From: Campylobacteraceae bacterium
GTDB taxonomy: Bacteria; Campylobacterota; Campylobacteria; Campylobacterales; Arcobacteraceae
DNA length: 64,000 bases
Assembly (NCBI GenBank): GCA_013373175.1
Contig: JABXII010000023.1
Location: 9,945 to 73,944 of the forward strand
Direction of reading: 5' to 3'
The position numbers were made by a program, and so were the translations under genes. Positions 45,337 through 58,028 of the stretch are shown piece after piece (the stretch's first letter is position 1; each line of letters starts with the position of its first letter). The notes under the pieces are model-generated. The model ran no database searches, was not told the origin of the DNA, and saw nothing but the letters and a program-made list of their open reading frames with translations.

Positions 45337-45540
45337 ATGGAAAATAACTCAATCCCAAAAGATATTATCAAAATTCAAAAAAAGCTTTGTAGTTTTGAAA
45401 AAGGTTCAAGGAACTATATAAAATATACAAAGATACTTAACAAGCATCTAAAGAAGCATGCAATGAAAAAAAGGGTTCTTAGTAATATAAAAACTATTGA
45501 AGCCATAAAAAAAATAGAAAAAAAGTCAAAAAGTAGTTAA
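45337..45540 (+). CDS. Small basic hypothetical protein
   Basis: AAGGA SD, 67 aa, very Lys-rich. Confidence 0.65.
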   Translation: MENNSIPKDIIKIQKKLCSFEKGSRNYIKYTKILNKHLKKHAMKKRVLSNIKTIEAIKKIEKKSKSS

Positions 45541-45703: not shown

Positions 45704-48310
45704 ATGAGAATTAATACTAACGTATCATCTATTACTGCACAAGAATCAGCAGTTAATACTGGTAAAAACATCAAAAACTCATTAGAGAAATTATCTTCAG
45801 GTCTTAGAATCAACAAAGCGTCAGATGATGCATCTGGTCTAGCAATTGCTGATAAATTAAGAACTCAAGCAACTTCTATTAATCAAGGTGTTTCAAATGG
45901 TAATTCAGCAGTTACATTACTTCAAATTGCTGATAAATCAATGGCTGAGCAATCAAATATTCTTGATACTATAAAATCTAAACTTATCCAAGCTAATACT
46001 GATACTACATCACCAGATGGTAGAGAATCTATTAGAAAAGATATTGTTAAACTTTTAGAGCAACTAGATAATATTGCTGAACAAACTAACTATAATGGTA
46101 ATGTATTACTTCAAGCTGCAGCTGATGACAAAGGTGAGTCAAGCTCATTATCTTTCCAAATTGGGGAATCAAATGCAGACATTATCAAAAATACTTCAGT
46201 ACAATCAAATACTGATGGATTAGGTTCAAAAACAGTTTATTCTCAAAAAAATGATAATAATACTATTGCTGCTACTGAATCAAAAACAGTAGCAAGTACT
46301 GGAACTATTTCTTTAACAGCAACAAATTCTTCTGATGAAAATACAGCAGAATCTATTTCTTTATCGGGAGATGTAGACTCTATTGCATTAAAAGAAGGAA
46401 TGACTATTTCAGGAATGGATTCTGCAACTCAAAGTGCTTTATTAGCTCATTTAACTACAGAAGGTACTAGTTATACTCAAAGTGGTAATACATTTACTAT
46501 AAATGAAGATACAACTTTAGATTTATCTTCAGTTGATTCTGTTACTGCAACTATCGTTACTACTGCTGAAAGTTCAAGTAGTTTTTCACCATCTGAAGGT
46601 GATATTGTTACTGCTTCAACTACAAATACAGGAAGTGCTTTAGCTACTGCTTTAACTGATGGTAGTAAATTTGTAGATAATTTAGATGGTACTTATACTG
46701 CAAAAGCAGGTGTAGGTTCACTTACACTTGAAGCTGGTGAATCTGTTGATTATAGTCAAGCAACTTTAGATAATACATTTACTACAGGTGATGTACTATC
46801 AGCTGTTACTACAAAAGCTGGAAGTGCTTTAGCAAATGCATTAGGAGATCCGGCTAAATTTAATGATAATGGTGATGGTACTTATACTGCATTAGCAGGG
46901 GCTGGTACTGTTTCTGTAGGTTTAGGAGAGAGCTTTACTGTAGATACTCCTACTAACTTAGCTGCAGATGTTGGAGATATAATTGATGTTAGTGGAACTG
47001 CTCCTAATGGAGGTAGTGCTCTTGAAACTGCATTAAATGATCCTTCTAAATTTGAAGATTTAGGTGGTAACAAATACAAATCTCTTCAAAATGGTCAAAG
47101 TATTGCTTTAGAATCTGGGGAATCTGTTGAGAAACTTGATGCAAAAACAGTTGGTATTGGTGCTTCATCAATCCCTGCAGGTTCAGTTGTTACATTAAAC
47201 TCTACTTTTGGTGGTGGAGCAACAGGTAGTACAGGTACTGACTTAGATAATCAATTATCAAATGCTTCTAAATTTACTGATAATGGTGATGGTACATTTA
47301 CTGTACTTGCAGACTTTACTGCTGACAACTTAAAATTAGTTGATGGAGAAAGTATTACAGTAACTTTAGCTGAAGAAGTTGGATTAACTGGAGCATCTGA
47401 TGCTGCTATGATTAATGATGCAAATGTTCAATTAAATGGTAGTGCAGCTGATTATGATTCTACTAATGGTAAAGTTGTAGGAGAAGGTTCAGCAGATGGT
47501 TCAGACCCACTAGTTGCATCTACTGTAGTTGATTTAGAATTCACTGTAACTGCACAAAGTGATGGAGATACATTTGAGTTCAAAGCTGGTGATACAGTTT
47601 CTTCGATTGCTGAAACATCAACTAATGGTAATGGATTAAGTGAATCAATTATTGAAAGTGGAAACTGGATTGACAATGGTGACGGTACTTATACAGCAAT
47701 TGCGGATCAAACTGTAACATTTGATGATGCAAATGATAGTTTAGGTGTTACTAGACAAGTAGGAAGTTCAGCAACACCAGTAACGCATACAGGTGATGCA
47801 GCTACAACTGTTGAAAGAGTAGCAAGTACTATAACAGGTACTTCAGCTACAGGTAATGTAACACCAAGTGAAGCAGTATCAGTTGATATCACTACAGATT
47901 CTACAGTTAATGTTACTAATAATGGTGGAGCAACAGACACTCTTACTATTACTGGTACTGAAGAAGTTTCAAATGGTGGAACTCAATTATCAGCATTAGC
48001 AGAACTTGCAAGTGGAACATTAACAGCAGCTAAAGCTTCTGAATTCCAAGCAGTAGTTGATGATGCTATTACTGACCTGAATGGATATAGAGGGGACATC
48101 GGTTCGACTCAAAACCAAGTTGAATCTGCCGTTAGAAACTTAATGACACAAGCAACAAACGTTAAAGCTGCTGAGTCTATTATTAGAGATGTTGATTATG
48201 CAAAAGAATCTGCAAACTTCAACAAACAAAATATTATTTCACAAGCTGGTTCATATGCTATTTCACAAGCAAATGCAACTCAACAAAATGTATTAAGATT
48301 ATTACAATAA
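45704..48310 (+). CDS. flaA: Flagellin, unusually large (868 aa) with repetitive central domains
   Basis: N-terminus MRINTN...LSSGLRINKASDDASGLAIA. C-terminus YRGDIGSTQNQ...IRDVDYAKES...VLRLLQ. Roughly 600-aa S/T/G/D-rich insert. Confidence 0.97.
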   Translation: MRINTNVSSITAQESAVNTGKNIKNSLEKLSSGLRINKASDDASGLAIADKLRTQATSINQGVSNGNSAVTLLQIADKSMAEQSNILDTIKSKLIQANTDTTSPDGRESIRKDIVKLLEQLDNIAEQTNYNGNVLLQAAADDKGESSSLSFQIGESNADIIKNTSVQSNTDGLGSKTVYSQKNDNNTIAATESKTVASTGTISLTATNSSDENTAESISLSGDVDSIALKEGMTISGMDSATQSALLAHLTTEGTSYTQSGNTFTINEDTTLDLSSVDSVTATIVTTAESSSSFSPSEGDIVTASTTNTGSALATALTDGSKFVDNLDGTYTAKAGVGSLTLEAGESVDYSQATLDNTFTTGDVLSAVTTKAGSALANALGDPAKFNDNGDGTYTALAGAGTVSVGLGESFTVDTPTNLAADVGDIIDVSGTAPNGGSALETALNDPSKFEDLGGNKYKSLQNGQSIALESGESVEKLDAKTVGIGASSIPAGSVVTLNSTFGGGATGSTGTDLDNQLSNASKFTDNGDGTFTVLADFTADNLKLVDGESITVTLAEEVGLTGASDAAMINDANVQLNGSAADYDSTNGKVVGEGSADGSDPLVASTVVDLEFTVTAQSDGDTFEFKAGDTVSSIAETSTNGNGLSESIIESGNWIDNGDGTYTAIADQTVTFDDANDSLGVTRQVGSSATPVTHTGDAATTVERVASTITGTSATGNVTPSEAVSVDITTDSTVNVTNNGGATDTLTITGTEEVSNGGTQLSALAELASGTLTAAKASEFQAVVDDAITDLNGYRGDIGSTQNQVESAVRNLMTQATNVKAAESIIRDVDYAKESANFNKQNIISQAGSYAISQANATQQNVLRLLQ
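46631..47698 (+). repeat. About five copies of a ~63-aa module inside flagellin
   Basis: GSAL..AL.D.SKF.DNxDGTYTA units starting at 46631, 46820, 47012, 47234 and 47627 (spacings 189, 192, 222, 393 nt). Confidence 0.88.
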
Positions 48311-48334: not shown

Positions 48335-48365
48335 AAAACCCAAGACATATGTCTTGGGTTTTTTT
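48335..48365 (+). terminator. Intrinsic terminator after flagellin
   Basis: Perfect palindrome AAAACCCAAGACATATGTCTTGGGTTTT followed by more T. Confidence 0.92.
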
Positions 48366-51882: not shown

Positions 51883-51922
51883 ATTTAGAAGATTTTAGAT
51901 GCTTTTCTAAAATCTTCTAAAT
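51883..51922. terminator. 17-bp perfect inverted repeat at the convergence of the eno operon and the neu cassette
   Basis: ATTTAGAAGATTTTAGA-TGCTTT-TCTAAAATCTTCTAAAT. Overlaps the last codons of neuA. Confidence 0.75.
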
Positions 51923-52565
51923 CTTCTATACTATCAATATCTAAACTTTTTTCTAAACTCATTTCATAAGAAATAGTTTTATCTGTAAAAAAACTTTCAT
52001 TTTTTAAAAACTCTTCTACATTTATAATATAAATTGCACCATTACTCATATAAGTTTTAGGTAAATCTTGTCTTCTCATAAAAGGATATTGGTTATTAGA
52101 AATACCTTCAATATATCCAAATTTATTTTCCTTAAAAGCTTTCAGTATCTTATTATCATATTCACAGACACTTATTAAAGCACTAGCTTCTGAAGTAAAT
52201 AGTTTTTCAAAAGCATTATCAATATCGTTAGCATCTCTTAAAGGTGAAGTAGGTTGTAATAAAACTATATAATCAAATTTTTCTTCAATACTTTCTAGGA
52301 GATGCTTAACCACAACTTCACTTGAAGATGTATCTGTCGCAAATTCATCAGGTCTTTTTATTATTTCTGCACCATATTTTATTGCAATTCCTAAAATCTC
52401 CTCACTGTCACTACTTACTATAGTTTTTGAAATATATTTTGAATTAAGACTAGCTTTAATTGTCCATGAAATAAGAGGTATCCCTGCTATATCAATAATA
52501 TTTTTCCTAGGAAGTCCTTTTGACCCTCCTCTTGCAGGAATAATTGCTAATACCTTTTTAGTCAT
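51885..52565 (-). CDS. neuA: Acylneuraminate (CMP-nonulosonate) cytidylyltransferase
   Basis: IIPARGGSKGLPRKN, VSSDS, LLQPTSPLR, RRQDL, NGAIY, DIDS. Confidence 0.93.
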   Translation of the reverse strand: MTKKVLAIIPARGGSKGLPRKNIIDIAGIPLISWTIKASLNSKYISKTIVSSDSEEILGIAIKYGAEIIKRPDEFATDTSSSEVVVKHLLESIEEKFDYIVLLQPTSPLRDANDIDNAFEKLFTSEASALISVCEYDNKILKAFKENKFGYIEGISNNQYPFMRRQDLPKTYMSNGAIYIINVEEFLKNESFFTDKTISYEMSLEKSLDIDSIEDLEDFRKASKIF

Positions 52566-53787
52566 CAAATCCATCTTTGTTTACTGTATGTCTTAGCTTC
52601 CATTCACCATCAACTTCTTTCCAGATGTGTGGACTTCTATGTTTATTAACTGTCTCCCAAAACTCTTCTTCTGTTGAATCAATATATTCTAAAAACTCTT
52701 CAAAGTATTTTGCAGGGAATTCAGTATCATACTTTTTAACTAAATATGCTGCTTCTTCTCTTGTGATTTTACCATTTCTAACTTCTTGTGCAGCATCATA
52801 TGTAGCTCTACCTATTCCAAATTTAATCAAAGTTGTAAAATAATGAAAAGGATCAATTTTATCATCAATACTACTGTATTTAGAATAACTTCCCTCTGTT
52901 CTAACTGTATTAGCTTCAAATCCTGTATTATCTGCTGCATAATAATAGCACTCTTGAGGATCCCACTTTAAATAATATCCTAAATAATGTACTTCCACTC
53001 CTGCATCAATTAGTTCTTGCTTATTAGGAGCAATATATGGAGCAAAGTCATCTTTTGTGTATTTCCCCGTATCTATATACTCTTGCATAGTAACTCCACC
53101 AAACTTCATTTCAAGCGCATTATCATTTGAAAAGAAATCCATATTCATAATTGGATTTGTATTTTCTTCAATTGCATTTCCATATTCTGCTTGATTTTCT
53201 CCATACATTACTAATTGAACACCAAATTTTTTGGCCATAGCAGGACCAATAATTCTCTGTCCTACGATAAAGGGTTGAAAAGGATGTAGTAAATTATGAA
53301 AAGCATTTTTTGTCATTTCTCTATGAAGTTTTCCATTTGGTGTATATAATATATTATCATGTCCACCTACATGCATCCAATTTTGAAAGTTTTTCCAACC
53401 AATATCTGTATAAAGATGAGGCGCCCATGTAACAGTAAGAGGGTTCATACCATACTTATATTTTAAAATATGAGAAGTATATGCACTATCTTTACCCCCA
53501 CTACCTGGAACAATTACATCATATGAACCATCTTTGCTTCTAAATTTAGCAAGTAATTCTCTAAGTTTTTCATCTCTTTCTTCCCAATCAATACCCGTCT
53601 CTTTCTCTTCATGGTAAACACAAGCAGAACAAACATCTTCTTCATTAAAATTAATTACTTTTTTCTTTTCACCCTTATCACTTTTAAACTCAACTGTTGA
53701 ACTAGGTCTTTGATTAGATATTACACATTTTTTACAAAATTTAACTTCATTTGGTAACCCATAATATGCTTCTAACTTTTCAGCCAT
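52558..53787 (-). CDS. N-acetyl sugar amidotransferase (WbuX/PseA/PtmG family)
   Basis: CKKC...C..C N-terminus, PP-loop VPGSGGKDS, MYGEN, YLGYY..WD, SIDD, KFGIGRA. Confidence 0.92.
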   Translation of the reverse strand: MAEKLEAYYGLPNEVKFCKKCVISNQRPSSTVEFKSDKGEKKKVINFNEEDVCSACVYHEEKETGIDWEERDEKLRELLAKFRSKDGSYDVIVPGSGGKDSAYTSHILKYKYGMNPLTVTWAPHLYTDIGWKNFQNWMHVGGHDNILYTPNGKLHREMTKNAFHNLLHPFQPFIVGQRIIGPAMAKKFGVQLVMYGENQAEYGNAIEENTNPIMNMDFFSNDNALEMKFGGVTMQEYIDTGKYTKDDFAPYIAPNKQELIDAGVEVHYLGYYLKWDPQECYYYAADNTGFEANTVRTEGSYSKYSSIDDKIDPFHYFTTLIKFGIGRATYDAAQEVRNGKITREEAAYLVKKYDTEFPAKYFEEFLEYIDSTEEEFWETVNKHRSPHIWKEVDGEWKLRHTVNKDGFDD

Positions 53788-54424
53788 TTTTTCTTTCCTC
53801 ACATAAATCTACAAAATTTTTCATTATTTTTAAGCCAATTTTTCCACTTTTTTCTGGATGGAATTGACATCCATAAATATTATCTTTTTTTACAGAAGAA
53901 CAAAACTTATAATCTGAATATTCAGTAAATGCTAATATATTTTCATCATTTCTAGGTGACACAATAAAACTATGAACAAAATACATATCTGAGTTTTCTT
54001 CTATATCTTTAAGTATTGTATTTTCCCAACTCTTATTTCTTTGTATTTCATTCCAGCTTACATGTGGAAGTTTTTCACTATTTGAGCTTTGTATAGGTAG
54101 TTTTATTACTTTACCCTCTATTAATCCCAATCCTTTATTGAGTCCAAACTCTTCACTCTCTTCCATAAGCATTTGCATTCCCAAACATATACCCATAAAA
54201 GGCTTTTTAGTTTCTACAAAATCATTGATAGTCTCAATTAACTCATACTTCTTAAGATTTTTCATGCCATGGGCAAAAGCCCCTACTCCAGGAAGAATTA
54301 CGCCATCAGAACTTAATATAACTTGCCTATCATTAGTTAAAATAGGTTCTATACCTATTTTTATAAAAGCATTAATAATACTTTTAACATTTCCAATGTC
54401 ATAATCAATTATTGAAATTTTCAT
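53780..54424 (-). CDS. HisH-like glutamine amidotransferase (glycan-locus paralog, WbuY-like)
   Basis: IIDYDIGNVKS, LPGVGAF, GICLGMQ, YFVHS, QFHPEKS. Confidence 0.92.
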   Translation of the reverse strand: MKISIIDYDIGNVKSIINAFIKIGIEPILTNDRQVILSSDGVILPGVGAFAHGMKNLKKYELIETINDFVETKKPFMGICLGMQMLMEESEEFGLNKGLGLIEGKVIKLPIQSSNSEKLPHVSWNEIQRNKSWENTILKDIEENSDMYFVHSFIVSPRNDENILAFTEYSDYKFCSSVKKDNIYGCQFHPEKSGKIGLKIMKNFVDLCEERKNG

Positions 54425-55179
54425 ATTCTAACCTTGATATCTTTCTCGATGATAGAATTTTTAATACTCTTAATATCTTCAATATTATAATGTATTGTAG
54501 AAGCTGTTGCAATTGCATCAATATTTGCTTTTGTAAATAAATTTATTGCATCTTTACTATTTCCCATTCCACCACTTGCAATTATAGGAATAGAAACTAC
54601 ACTTTCTACTTCTTTATAAAGTTCTGTTTCAAAACCTTTTTTTGTTCCCTCTTTATCTAAAGAAGTTAACATTATTTCTCCAGCTCCTAACTCTTCTAAT
54701 TTTTGAACCCACGTTATAACATCAACTCCTGTTGGTTCCCTTCCATTTTCAATATAAGCTTCCCATTTATTATCTGATATTTTTTTTGCAACAACTGAAG
54801 CTACAATGCACTGAGAACCAAAAATTTCTGATGCTTCTTTTATAAAATTAGGGTTTTCTATTGCTTTTGTATTTATTGCAACTTTATCAGCACCTGAATT
54901 TAGTGCTTTTTTTATATCATCAATTGTTCTTATTCCACCACCAACCGTAATTGGAACAAAAACTTCTTCACAAGCTTTTTCAATAATATGACTTAAACTA
55001 TTTCGATCATAATATGCAGCAACTGCATCCATAAAAACTATTTCATCTATTCCTTCATCATAGTACTTTTTTGCTAAAATATTTGGGTCTCCTACTTTAC
55101 GAAGTCCTTCTAAATGGATACCTTTAATTACATATTCATTCTTTATATCTAATCTAGCAATTATTCGTTTTTTAATCAT
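54421..55179 (-). CDS. HisF-like cyclase (glycan-locus paralog, WbuZ/HisF2-like)
   Basis: RIIARLDIK...VIKG, VPITVGGGIR, GADKVAINT, GAGEIML, PIIASGG. Confidence 0.92.
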   Translation of the reverse strand: MIKKRIIARLDIKNEYVIKGIHLEGLRKVGDPNILAKKYYDEGIDEIVFMDAVAAYYDRNSLSHIIEKACEEVFVPITVGGGIRTIDDIKKALNSGADKVAINTKAIENPNFIKEASEIFGSQCIVASVVAKKISDNKWEAYIENGREPTGVDVITWVQKLEELGAGEIMLTSLDKEGTKKGFETELYKEVESVVSIPIIASGGMGNSKDAINLFTKANIDAIATASTIHYNIEDIKSIKNSIIEKDIKVRI

Positions 55180-56302
55180 TTACAAAATCCTGGAATTGTT
55201 TTTGATGTTCTACTTCCCACAGTTTATTATTTGATAAAAGTTCAAGAAATTGTTTATCACTATTTCCTTCTCCAAATAAGTTATTATCTGTTTCTTCTAC
55301 TTTATATTCTTTCATCAATTTTATTGCATGTAAAATTTCTGTTTTTTCATAACTAGTATGAATAATAGATTTTAATTTTGCTCTATTTAACTGTCTTGTA
55401 CCTATATCAATTGTTGGTATATTATAAAAAGGAGCTTCTCTAATTCCAGCACTAGAGTTTCCTATTATAAAATCACTTTGTTCTAATAATCGTAAAAAAA
55501 ACTCAAACCTAAGGGAAGGAAAGATTTTGATTTTCTTAGAATTAATTTTATTATATTCATTTAAAATCTCATTGGAACCTATATCATTATTTGGGTACAC
55601 TAATATATAATTTTTACCACTTTCTATTATAGCGTCTACAAAGTTTTTAGAATATTCTATAATATTGTCATATTCAGTAGTTATAGGATGAAACATCCCT
55701 ATTGCATAGTTTTTAAAGTCAATTTCATAGTAATCTTTGACAAATTCTATAGAAGGAAGTCTTGAAGGTTTCATTAAGTCTAAATCAGGCGAACCTATTA
55801 CATGTACTGAATTAGAAAACTCTCCTAATTGTATAAGTCTTTTTTTTGCTTCTTCATTTGCTACTAAATGAATGTGAGAAAGTTTACTTGTTGCATGTCG
55901 AATAGATTCATCGATTGTTCCCGAAATTTCTCCTCCTTCAATATGTGCAACTAATATATTATTTAAACTTCCAACAATAGCTCCTGCTAAAGCTTCTACT
56001 CTATCTCCATGAATAACAATAAGGTCAGGTTTATATTCTGCAACAAACATTGAAAAACCATTTATAGTTCGAGCAAGAGTTCTATCCATATGTTCTACTG
56101 TATCATGATTAATATATTGAAATATATTCTTAAAGCCTGATTTATATATTTCATCCACTGTATAACCATATTTAGTATTTAAATGCATTCCCGTTGCAAA
56201 AATACTAATGTCAAATAATTCTGAATCTTGAGTTATTTTAATCAATGATTTTAGCTTTCCAAAATCAGCACGAGTTCCACTTAAAAAAACTATTTTTTTC
56301 AT
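55172..56302 (-). CDS. neuC: UDP-N-acetylglucosamine 2-epimerase (hydrolysing)
   Basis: SGTRADFGK, TGMHL, HGDRVE, HIEGGE, DESIRHA, GNSSAG, GTRQ. Confidence 0.95.
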   Translation of the reverse strand: MKKIVFLSGTRADFGKLKSLIKITQDSELFDISIFATGMHLNTKYGYTVDEIYKSGFKNIFQYINHDTVEHMDRTLARTINGFSMFVAEYKPDLIVIHGDRVEALAGAIVGSLNNILVAHIEGGEISGTIDESIRHATSKLSHIHLVANEEAKKRLIQLGEFSNSVHVIGSPDLDLMKPSRLPSIEFVKDYYEIDFKNYAIGMFHPITTEYDNIIEYSKNFVDAIIESGKNYILVYPNNDIGSNEILNEYNKINSKKIKIFPSLRFEFFLRLLEQSDFIIGNSSAGIREAPFYNIPTIDIGTRQLNRAKLKSIIHTSYEKTEILHAIKLMKEYKVEETDNNLFGEGNSDKQFLELLSNNKLWEVEHQKQFQDFVND

Positions 56303-56982
56303 TTTATTATAAATGCAATATTATGAGAATAATCTAACTTTTGAATAATTACTCTATCTTCAAAAAAATCATCTATTGCCTTATTAGCTCCTGCAAAATC
56401 TCCATAATCATCAAATATAATTATTCCACCCTTTACAACATGAGAAAATAACAACTCTAAAGATAATTTTGTAGCTTCATATAAATCAACATCTATGTGT
56501 AGTAAAGAGATTTTCAGTTGAGGGTTTTTTTTCAAGTACTCTGGTAAAGTTTGTAAAATATCACCTTTTATAAGTTCTACATTTTTATTTAGTTTCTGTT
56601 TTTCCAAGAGGTCATTTAATTCTTCTAAAGATATACCTCTTCCCCCATCAGTCTCTTTAATAAATAATTCCCTTTCTTTCTTATCCTCTTCAAATTCAGT
56701 TACAGGGAAATCACCAAATACATCAAAAGCAATAATTTTTCTACTATAAGTATTTTCTAGTAATTCTCTAAATTTTATCCATCTAAAAAGAGAATTTCCT
56801 TTAAAGACACCTAGTTCTACTATCTCACCACGTATACAAGTTGTTCTTTTAAAAAACTCTAAATGAGTCAATATTTTACTTAATCTTCGTGGTTCTGCAG
56901 TTGCATAAAAACCATTTTCATATTCAAAATTTTTTTCTAAATCATATAACATTTTTTCTCTTTCAAATTTCAATATTTTCAT
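56299..56982 (-). CDS. TylF/MycF-family methyltransferase
   Basis: GEIVELGVFKG, FDVF, LLHIDVDLYE, GGIIIFDDY. Confidence 0.88.
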   Translation of the reverse strand: MKILKFEREKMLYDLEKNFEYENGFYATAEPRRLSKILTHLEFFKRTTCIRGEIVELGVFKGNSLFRWIKFRELLENTYSRKIIAFDVFGDFPVTEFEEDKKERELFIKETDGGRGISLEELNDLLEKQKLNKNVELIKGDILQTLPEYLKKNPQLKISLLHIDVDLYEATKLSLELLFSHVVKGGIIIFDDYGDFAGANKAIDDFFEDRVIIQKLDYSHNIAFIIK

Positions 56983-56990
56983 CTTCAATT

Positions 56991-58028
56991 TTAATTAATA
57001 TCTTCCCAACTTAAATGAGTATCACTTAAAATACTTTTTGAAGCTTTTTTACCAATTATATCATTGTAGTACTCTGCTTTAATAGGACCAGTACCAGGCC
57101 TTTTTACCCAAAGATTGTCTTTCGTGAACTCTTCACCTTTTTGAATGTCTTTAATTGTTACAACTGTTGCAAAAGCAAAATCTATTGTAACTTGTTCTTC
57201 TGCTGCTGGTTCTTTTACTCCACCTCTCATTAGTGATATTTCTTTACTACCAATAATAAGTTCTTTTAATGCAATTGGATCCATTGAATTAATAATATCA
57301 GGACCTGTTCTTTCCATTTTATCTGTAAAATGTCTTTCTAAAATACATGCTCCTAGTGCTGTTGCAGCAAAACAAGCTCTATTTGAAGTAGTGTGGTCAG
57401 ATAAGCCTACAATAGCATTAGGAAACTCTTTTTGGAGTTCTTGCATTGCACCAAGTCTAACAAGATGTACAGGAGTAGGATAAAGATTTGTTGTATGAAG
57501 TAAAGCATAAGATACATTTTTTCTTTCTAGTATGTCAACTGTTTTTTTTACTTGTCTAATATCATTCATTCCTGTACTTACAATCATTGGTTTACCAAAA
57601 GATGCAATATGCTCTATGAGTGGATAATTATTACACTCCCCAGAACCAATTTTATATGCGCTTACACCTATTCTTTCAAGTCTATCTGCTGCTGCTCTTG
57701 AAAAAGGAGTACTAATAAAAATCATTCCTTTTGACTCAATATAGTCTTTTAACTTTTTTTCGTCTTCTTCACTTAATGCACATCTTTCCATTATTTCATA
57801 AATAGACTCAGATGCATTTCCTGGAACAACATTTTTAGCTTCTTTACTCATTTCATCTTCCACTACATGTGTTTGATGTTTTATAACTTCTGCTCCAGCT
57901 TTCCAAGCTTCATCAACCATCTCAAGAGCTGTTTCTAAAGACCCTTCATGATTAATACCAATTTCTACTATTACTAAAGGAGGTTTTTCTAAACTTATTT
58001 CTCTGTTTTCTATAATTAACTTTTTCAT
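56991..58028 (-). CDS. neuB: N-acetylneuraminate synthase (Neu5Ac-type NeuB/SiaC)
   Basis: [52 protein letters not shown]-terminal SAF domain (WVKRPG). Confidence 0.95.

Follow-up and report, generated by a model that had tools for sequence, protein, structure and literature searches.

The window analysed here is the whole 64,000-nucleotide stretch of contig JABXII010000023.1 (assembly GCA_013373175.1, positions 9,945 to 73,944, forward strand) of a Campylobacteraceae bacterium assigned to the Arcobacteraceae, and the element in question is a large flagellin gene with a repeat-built middle part. The open reading frame (ORF; 45704..48310, + strand, as for all parts of the gene given below) comprises 868 codons and encodes an 868-aa protein (P0001) of 88 kDa with an isoelectric point (pI) of 4.05. 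Both ends of this protein are recognized by Pfam, as Flagellin_N (PF00669) over aa 3-138 (E 3e-35, 121.7 bits for a cut-off of 26.6) and Flagellin_C (PF00700) over aa 784-867 (E 6e-26, 91 bits for a cut-off of 23), with nothing real in Pfam between them, and its top NCBIfam matches are the Campylobacter/Helicobacter FlaA/FlaB models, at the two ends only. The protein starts with the canonical MRINTN, the N-terminal D0/D1 core (aa 1-175, 45704..46228) includes Flagellin_N and columns that are near-invariant among 16 homologues, and the C-terminal D1/D0 core (aa 763-868, 47990..48307) includes Flagellin_C. Downstream lie an intrinsic-terminator-like hairpin (48335..48362, + strand; 12-bp stem, 4-nt loop, T run) and the genes recA and eno, and upstream lie trmA and a 67-aa ORF, so that there is no tandem flagellin gene. 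Neither a sigma-54 nor a sigma-28 promoter was found when the flagellin leader was read by eye. The sequence-only reading, made from the letters and the list of ORFs, had described a large repeat-bearing flagellin of 868 aa with its own terminator and no tandem flaB, and this observation is confirmed.

The extra length of this flagellin is a tandem array of five recognizable ~60-aa units, as had been proposed, on which DNA repeats, motif, unit profile and shuffle tests agree. At the DNA level, the repeat family consists of five in-register copies of 79 nt with spacings of 189, 192, 222 and 393 nt. Unit 1 (aa 299-357, 46598..46774) and unit 2 (aa 362-420, 46787..46963), both delimited by the DNA repeat and by the unit hidden Markov model (HMM), are 72% identical in DNA over 121 nt (72-76% over 79-121 nt), and the two strings first quoted for their long nucleotide identity do sit in copies 1 and 2. 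Unit 3 (aa 424-484, 46973..47155, unit HMM) has the hairpin motif DLGGNKYK, and unit 4 (aa 493-560, 47180..47383, unit HMM) a Gly-rich insertion after its first strand; unit 5 (aa 629-689, 47588..47770, unit HMM and unit tree) follows a non-repeat beta-rich insert (aa 561-628, 47384..47587). At the protein level, the motif DN[GL]DGT[YF]T occurs at aa 325, 388, 526 and 657, with GGNKYK at aa 454, and a Glu-Ser pair is conserved near the end of each unit. The unit HMM, built from the five units, returns five domains of 74-89 bits each, and pairwise alignments between units score 5.6-18.6 standard deviations (SD) above shuffles, with the exception of units 3 and 5 (1.5 SD).

In composition, the central part is rich in Ser, Thr and Asp and poor in Lys and Arg, as first described (T 15.0%, S 12.8%, D 8.8%, K 3.1%, R 0.3%). 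The outer region as a whole (aa 176-762) has a pI of 4.05, a net charge of -62 and 163 Ser plus Thr residues (27.8%), which bears out the acidic character ascribed to it.

Predicted fold of the unit and the hairpin motif

Structure prediction of the full 868-aa protein (AlphaFold2, AF2, with 16 homologues) gave predicted local distance difference test (pLDDT) values of 83-93 for the outer region (aa 180-760), in which the prediction for each unit is a single strand followed by a helix of 6-7 residues and by four or five further strands. A three-unit model (aa 290-490, 15 sequences including FlgK rows) reached a pLDDT of 87 and a predicted template modelling score (pTM) of 0.53, with dips in confidence at unit boundaries and linkers, and this combination fits separately folded domains on flexible links. 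In the proximal outer region (aa 176-298, 46229..46597; AF2 pLDDT 83-92), beta strands are followed by a possible degenerate unit (unit 0, aa 233-290) with the same predicted order of strand, helix and strands as the units. Its sequence similarity to them is not significant (HMM -0.7 bits, z <=3.5 against shuffles), for which reason a sixth unit was rejected on sequence grounds. The distal outer region (aa 690-762, 47771..47989) is all-beta in the AF2 model and leads back to the core, and was not accepted as a unit. Of the degenerate units that had been thought to flank the five, the proximal candidate thus retains its predicted structure and loses its sequence argument, and the distal one falls away.

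This small domain resembles no catalogued one among the resources searched. Foldseek with the full model against the PDB retrieved flagellin cores only, and with the three-unit model (PDB library to April 2026) nothing below E 0.15 and no flagellin outer domain, the top match being the repeats of the major vault protein (probability 0.23). The three-unit model likewise had no match in BFVD, and profile and sequence searches against PDB chains with the unit block and both flanking outer segments had none either. Comparing the module with described flagellin outer-domain families, as had been advised, therefore gave no match in Pfam or the PDB, and the advised AlphaFold and Foldseek analysis yielded a confident strand-helix-strands unit with no fold relative in the PDB. 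An Ig-like fold had also been suggested, and it is contradicted by the predicted helix in each unit and by the lack of a significant Ig-type fold match in the PDB. Judging from these models and searches, the module is a small alpha/beta domain, with no Ig-like fold and no counterpart among the described flagellin outer domains.

The motif itself, from which calcium binding had been proposed (DNGDG), resembles a beta-hairpin turn. Unit 1 has DNLDGT and unit 3 DLGGNK at this site, and in most homologues unit 2 carries a longer Gly-rich hairpin instead (KFTLxSGxAGxxGAVYT); neither DxDxDG nor the EF-hand-type pattern D-x-[DN]-x-[DN]-G is kept in every unit, and there is no conserved ligand set. 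The proposal of calcium binding is therefore not supported by the sequence of the motif. When the five-unit profile was run against 1.84 billion representative proteins, 74 matches were obtained, and those covering the unit at full length were flagellins and FlgK. Non-flagellar matches (P0023-P0046 and others) are large repetitive surface proteins, aligned mainly at the hairpin (DNGDGT[YFW]T) with 8-14 bits per repeat and significant only through the summing of many repeats; we treat this likeness as a shared short motif and claim no domain homology. An occurrence of the module outside flagellar proteins was accordingly rejected, and the search for it beyond flagellins, which the sequence-only reading had called for, succeeded as far as FlgK and elsewhere met the hairpin motif only.

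These results bear on the possibility that the array is chiefly a binding device, i.e., a calcium-stiffened or ligand-binding adhesin rod displayed on the filament, with the DNGDGT[YF]T hairpin as its functional site, and not a passive glycosylated coat. Such a role could be read into the recurrence of the hairpin in large repetitive surface or adhesin-like proteins (Cadherin_5, Big_9, tagged for the type IX secretion system, T9SS), into the strong acidity of the array and into the Glu-Ser pair kept near the end of each unit. We consider it unlikely, however, given that the motif is neither DxDxDG nor an EF-hand loop, that its replacements in units 2 and 3 leave no metal-ligand set conserved, that the non-flagellar matches hardly extend beyond the hairpin, and that no known binding domain was matched by fold or by sequence.

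The closest non-flagellar matches are Bacteroidota-type repeat proteins (the metagenomic P0026, P0027, P0033 and P0042, and locus L015 from an uncultured Flavobacteriaceae). These secreted-type proteins are made of many near-identical repeats without a Pfam model, in which "VDNGDGTYxFTNANGDTITVDV" alternates with "GDVVTNIQNQGxIYNEIINIL...FVDNGDGTFTHT", and their likeness to the flagellin unit comprises the DNGDGT hairpin and perhaps more.

Filament role and glycosylation genes

The genome, which is 99.98% complete, has three Flagellin_N matches (the 868-aa gene, a 275-aa ORF and a 454-aa FlgL-like gene) and two Flagellin_C matches only. The 275-aa flagellin-family ORF (contig C3, locus L002 1465..2292, + strand) consists of the core only, with both end domains, and its existence means that the large flagellin is not the "single" one it had been called. 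It is conceivable that this paralogue builds most of the filament, in the manner of the ~280-315-aa flagellins of most Arcobacteraceae (the commonest size of flagellin frame in 151 genomes of the family), and that the 868-aa protein is a minor, specialised or secreted subunit, for example an adhesive cap-proximal or sheath-like one. This seems quite improbable to us. The Flagellin_N match of the 275-aa protein begins only at profile position 20, its N-terminus is divergent (MQINNVQLDQSPY...) and its two domain scores are lower (97 and 61 bits vs. 122 and 91 for the 868-aa protein). Its gene stands away from the flagellar genes, with a kinase fragment and a lipoprotein-like ORF as neighbours, and its build resembles that of the secreted, non-filament FlaC of Campylobacter. 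The 868-aa protein, by contrast, has the MRINTN start, a core that is near-invariant among 16 homologues, and a conserved locus that adjoins a Maf gene in a relative. From these sequence features, the 868-aa protein is the likeliest main filament subunit.

Genes for flagellin glycosylation lie 3.6-12 kb downstream of the flagellin gene. A nonulosonic-acid pathway operon (51885..58028, - strand) encodes a CMP-sugar cytidylyltransferase, a WbuX N-acetyl-sugar amidotransferase, HisH-like and HisF-like proteins, a NeuC-like 2-epimerase, a TylF-type methyltransferase and a NeuB-family synthase. Divergent from it is the sole Maf gene of the genome (58145..60145, + strand), whose 666-aa product is a Maf-type flagellin glycosyltransferase with Maf_flag10_N and MptE-like domains. 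The WbuX, HisH/HisF-like and TylF-type methyltransferase genes suggest that the sugar is an amidino- and/or methyl-modified nonulosonic acid, which is probably placed on the flagellin. A second NeuB homologue is encoded on contig C25. In a relative with an 819-aa flagellin (P0021, locus L023), the gene order is SUV3-like helicase, trmA, small ORF, flagellin, Maf, PseB, PseC, formyltransferase and NeuB, with the same upstream synteny as in the present genome and with Maf immediately next to the flagellin gene. Maf enzymes O-glycosylate Ser/Thr residues of flagellin with nonulosonic acids (PMC4065374, PMC3426422). Considering this activity, the Maf and nonulosonic-acid genes in the window and the adjacency in the relative, the Ser/Thr-rich outer layer is probably O-glycosylated by Maf, and the glycosylated coat of the sequence-only reading holds up as a plausible one.

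The small ORF shared by these two loci is Lys-rich and lies between trmA and the flagellin gene (45337-45540, + strand; 67 aa). Its counterpart in the relative (L023 5571-5837) has 88 aa, occupies the same position and is ~60% identical over 60 residues. As this position is kept, the ORF is probably a real gene linked to the flagellin locus.

Array history and a block shared with FlgK

A search with aa 150-780 retrieved 21 proteins, namely flagellins of 726-905 aa and five FlgK of ~1055 aa. The flagellins come from Poseidonibacter ostreae, Halarcobacter, "Aliarcobacter sp.", "Arcobacter sp. CECT 8989" and metagenomes, the nearest named relatives being Halarcobacter, Poseidonibacter and "Arcobacter sp. 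CECT 8989". With the iterated unit HMM, five units were found in every 868-905-aa flagellin and in every FlgK (5/5), and three units in every 726-753-aa flagellin; across the 22 homologues, which extend down to ~40% identity, the unit number was either 3 or 5. When all units were placed in one tree, they grouped by position and not by protein, across flagellins and FlgKs (unit 2 of P0001, for instance, groups with unit 2 of the FlgK proteins). The units of the three-unit forms correspond to units 3, 4 and 5, and units 1 and 2 form groups of their own. A tree of the block from unit 3 to unit 5 interleaves three-unit and five-unit flagellins, which implies that the pair of units 1 and 2 was lost (or gained) more than once and suggests repeated loss.

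Since the units group by position, the array appears to be old and position-specifically conserved, neither expanding nor homogenised; Tandem Repeats Finder saw no DNA-level array in the gene, which also argues that the unit copies are old. The expanding array of the sequence-only reading is thus at odds with both the positional clustering and the restriction to three- and five-unit forms. An evolutionarily active array, in which slippage or recombination would gain and lose units for rapid antigenic or phage-receptor variation, might be read from the DNA identity of units 1 and 2 and from the repeated loss or gain of that pair, but is very improbable when unit number is so constrained, when units resemble their positional counterparts (those in FlgK included) and not their neighbours, and when no DNA array is detected.

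Arcobacteraceae flagellins are usually described as short (~300 aa). Across 151 species genomes sampled from the family, in which flagellin frames mostly have 280-315 aa, the block was found in 7 (3 of the 22 genera), always within a flagellin frame of 722-902 aa. Flagellins of 722-766 aa from three genomes of the same genus (G129, G141, G105) and from one of another genus of the family (G027; loci L011-L014) share only the C-terminal part of the block, either the insert and unit 5 or units 3-5. This partial sharing indicates that, at the sequence level, the flagellin outer region is mosaic across the genus.

The complete block occurs in a second type of axial protein, FlgK of the hook-filament junction. 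Residues 285-705 of the flagellin P0001 are collinear with residues 400-812 of the FlgK protein P0013 (40% identity, E 5e-80), in an alignment spanning the five units as well as the non-repeat insert that separates units 4 and 5, an insert thus also kept in FlgK. P0013 is a genuine FlgK, with a FlgK_D1 domain and rod-type end domains, and its gene belongs to a flgH-flgK-fliD-fliS operon on three metagenome contigs; the carriers of the FlgK block are closely related uncultured bacteria, and FlgK variants with it occur in the metagenomes SRR14865018, SRR14865024 and SRR14865031. The contig of P0013 is syntenic gene for gene with contig C8, which holds the FlgK locus of our genome (proteins 48-85% identical), so that the two FlgK are orthologous. 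The own FlgK (870 aa; C8:136424-139036, - strand; locus L019 925..3537, - strand), encoded outside the window, matches P0013 at both ends and has, where P0013 has the block, about five tandem ~40-aa IN-like repeats (aa 413-610; consensus L-x-I-N-G-x-x-F-S-T...Y-x-D-L-x-x-x-I-N), with a sub-threshold Pfam Flagellin_IN match at aa 565-612. Within this genome, the module is thus confined to the flagellin.

In the block tree, all FlgK blocks fall into a single clade (support 1.0), whose sister group is P0001 and P0002 (support 0.90) and which is nested among flagellin blocks. Owing to this nesting, a single copy event from a flagellin of the P0001 subclade to FlgK, in a sister lineage, is the most likely history. 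What appears to be new here is the presence of a whole five-unit flagellin block in place of the central repeats of FlgK.

A proposed chain of small outer domains and its known counterparts

Broadly, we think it quite likely that the 868-aa protein is the main filament subunit of this marine Arcobacteraceae bacterium, and that its outer part is a chain of position-conserved small domains giving the filament an acidic, probably glycosylated coat and forming a portable block. The N- and C-terminal helices (aa 1-175 and 763-868) would build the filament core, as in every flagellin, and the ~590-aa middle would exit this core, pass along a string of small alpha/beta domains, each folded separately (the five clear units of ~60 aa, one beta-rich insert and possibly a degenerate sixth unit), and return. 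Once assembled into a filament, these domains would make up a thick and strongly acidic outer layer, in which many exposed Ser and Thr residues are probably O-glycosylated with the amidino- or methyl-modified nonulosonic acid by the Maf encoded nearby. The array would have arisen through old internal duplications and now be position-specifically conserved, relatives keeping all five units or units 3-5, and in the sister lineage the block would have served as a portable cassette placed in the outward-facing middle of FlgK.

Several observations weigh against this interpretation. The core helices were predicted at low confidence in the AF2 model (pLDDT 30-50), and the 275-aa paralogue could contribute to the filament, or even form it. 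The glycosylation genes start 3.6 kb from the flagellin gene, with recA, eno and others between, so that the linkage is loose in this genome. The direction of transfer was read from a FastTree tree with midpoint rooting, built on about 250 aligned residues. Overall, the interpretation offered by the sequence-only reading, i.e., an expanding array of Ig-like or calcium-binding modules in a thick, acidic and glycosylated coat, is partly supported.

Large (>800 aa) and giant (>1000 aa) flagellins were described by Thomson et al. (2018), who showed thick filaments and a mode of growth by tandem duplication of the outer region followed by vertical descent (PMC6248924). With 868 aa, the present flagellin fits the large class and falls short of the giant one, and with five related units in positional orthology it is likewise enlarged by tandem duplication of outer domains. 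The large and giant flagellins of Oceanospirillales (Bermanella marisrubri, Oleibacter marinus) are similarly marine and were enlarged when an outer "domain extension" (DE; PMC6248924) was duplicated internally in tandem, but in two large DE regions, whereas the array here has five ~60-aa units, belongs to the Campylobacterota and is also found in FlgK. No gammaproteobacterial flagellin was among the homologue or unit-profile matches, in searches that included no comparison aimed at the DE regions.

A second comparison is offered by the about 17,000 predicted flagellin outer domains that have been sorted into 682 structural clusters (PMC11532411). Clusters 1-4 and 6 of this set are Ig-like outer domains with an all-beta sandwich fold, which the helix-containing units predicted here do not show. 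The flagellin of Geovibrio thiophilus (793 aa, PDB 9au6) is likewise large with an outer chain of several domains (D2-D5), and forms a 24-nm filament with an unusually negative surface (PMC11532411). Its sequence matches P0001 in the core only, and the three-unit model had no significant fold match in a PDB library that should include 9au6. By analogy with these systems, the filament built from P0001 would be thick (PMC6248924, PMC11532411). Neither Arcobacter nor FlgK is mentioned in the main text of these two studies, and no Arcobacter is among their supplementary entries listed.

Within the same phylum, the closest solved relatives by sequence are H. pylori FlaA/FlaB and C. jejuni FlaA (PDB 6x80, 9ygu, 9yh1; E 1e-53 to 1e-55), the similarity being limited to the D0/D1 core and the first residues beyond. 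The outer domains of these flagellins are also Ser/Thr-rich, and Maf-family enzymes decorate them with O-linked pseudaminic or legionaminic acids. These outer parts consist, however, of two Ig-like domains (PMC11532411), in which the five-unit array has no match. Finally, Flagellin_IN repeats (PF07196) are likewise short strand-helix-strand modules in the exposed middle of flagellar axial proteins, but of ~40 aa, as compared with ~60 aa for the flagellin units. PF07196 has no match at E<=1 in the 868-aa flagellin, and a link between the two, considered because the patterns look alike by eye, was rejected (hhalign probability 0.5% against the IN-like repeats of the own FlgK; hmmsearch 3-7 bits).

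A large, repeat-built flagellin is thus not surprising on its own, since flagellin diversity (PMC11532411) and growth by tandem duplication (PMC6248924) are already known. The protein fits this known kind, and what is particular to it is the unclassified module, a small alpha/beta domain with no relative in Pfam, PDB sequences or PDB folds, together with the series of three- and five-unit forms and the sharing with FlgK.

Because their units are conserved by position, the three- and five-unit forms would provide a natural series for probing the effect of extra outer domains. How thick and how charged a filament is, which glycans it displays, how phages recognize it and how it behaves in viscous media are determined by flagellin outer domains. 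The ~400-aa block in FlgK, at an orthologous locus of the sister lineage, gives direct evidence of multi-domain surface blocks moving between flagellar axial proteins. It is tempting, if doubtful, to go further and see in it a portable coat cassette of an unclassified small alpha/beta fold, copied from flagellin into the FlgK middle in the sister lineage in replacement of IN-type repeats, so that the hook-filament junction and the filament would show the same, probably Maf-glycosylated, surface. If true, the outer layers of axial proteins would be exchanged as ready-made multi-domain blocks, and selection would act on a uniform flagellar surface and not on each protein separately.

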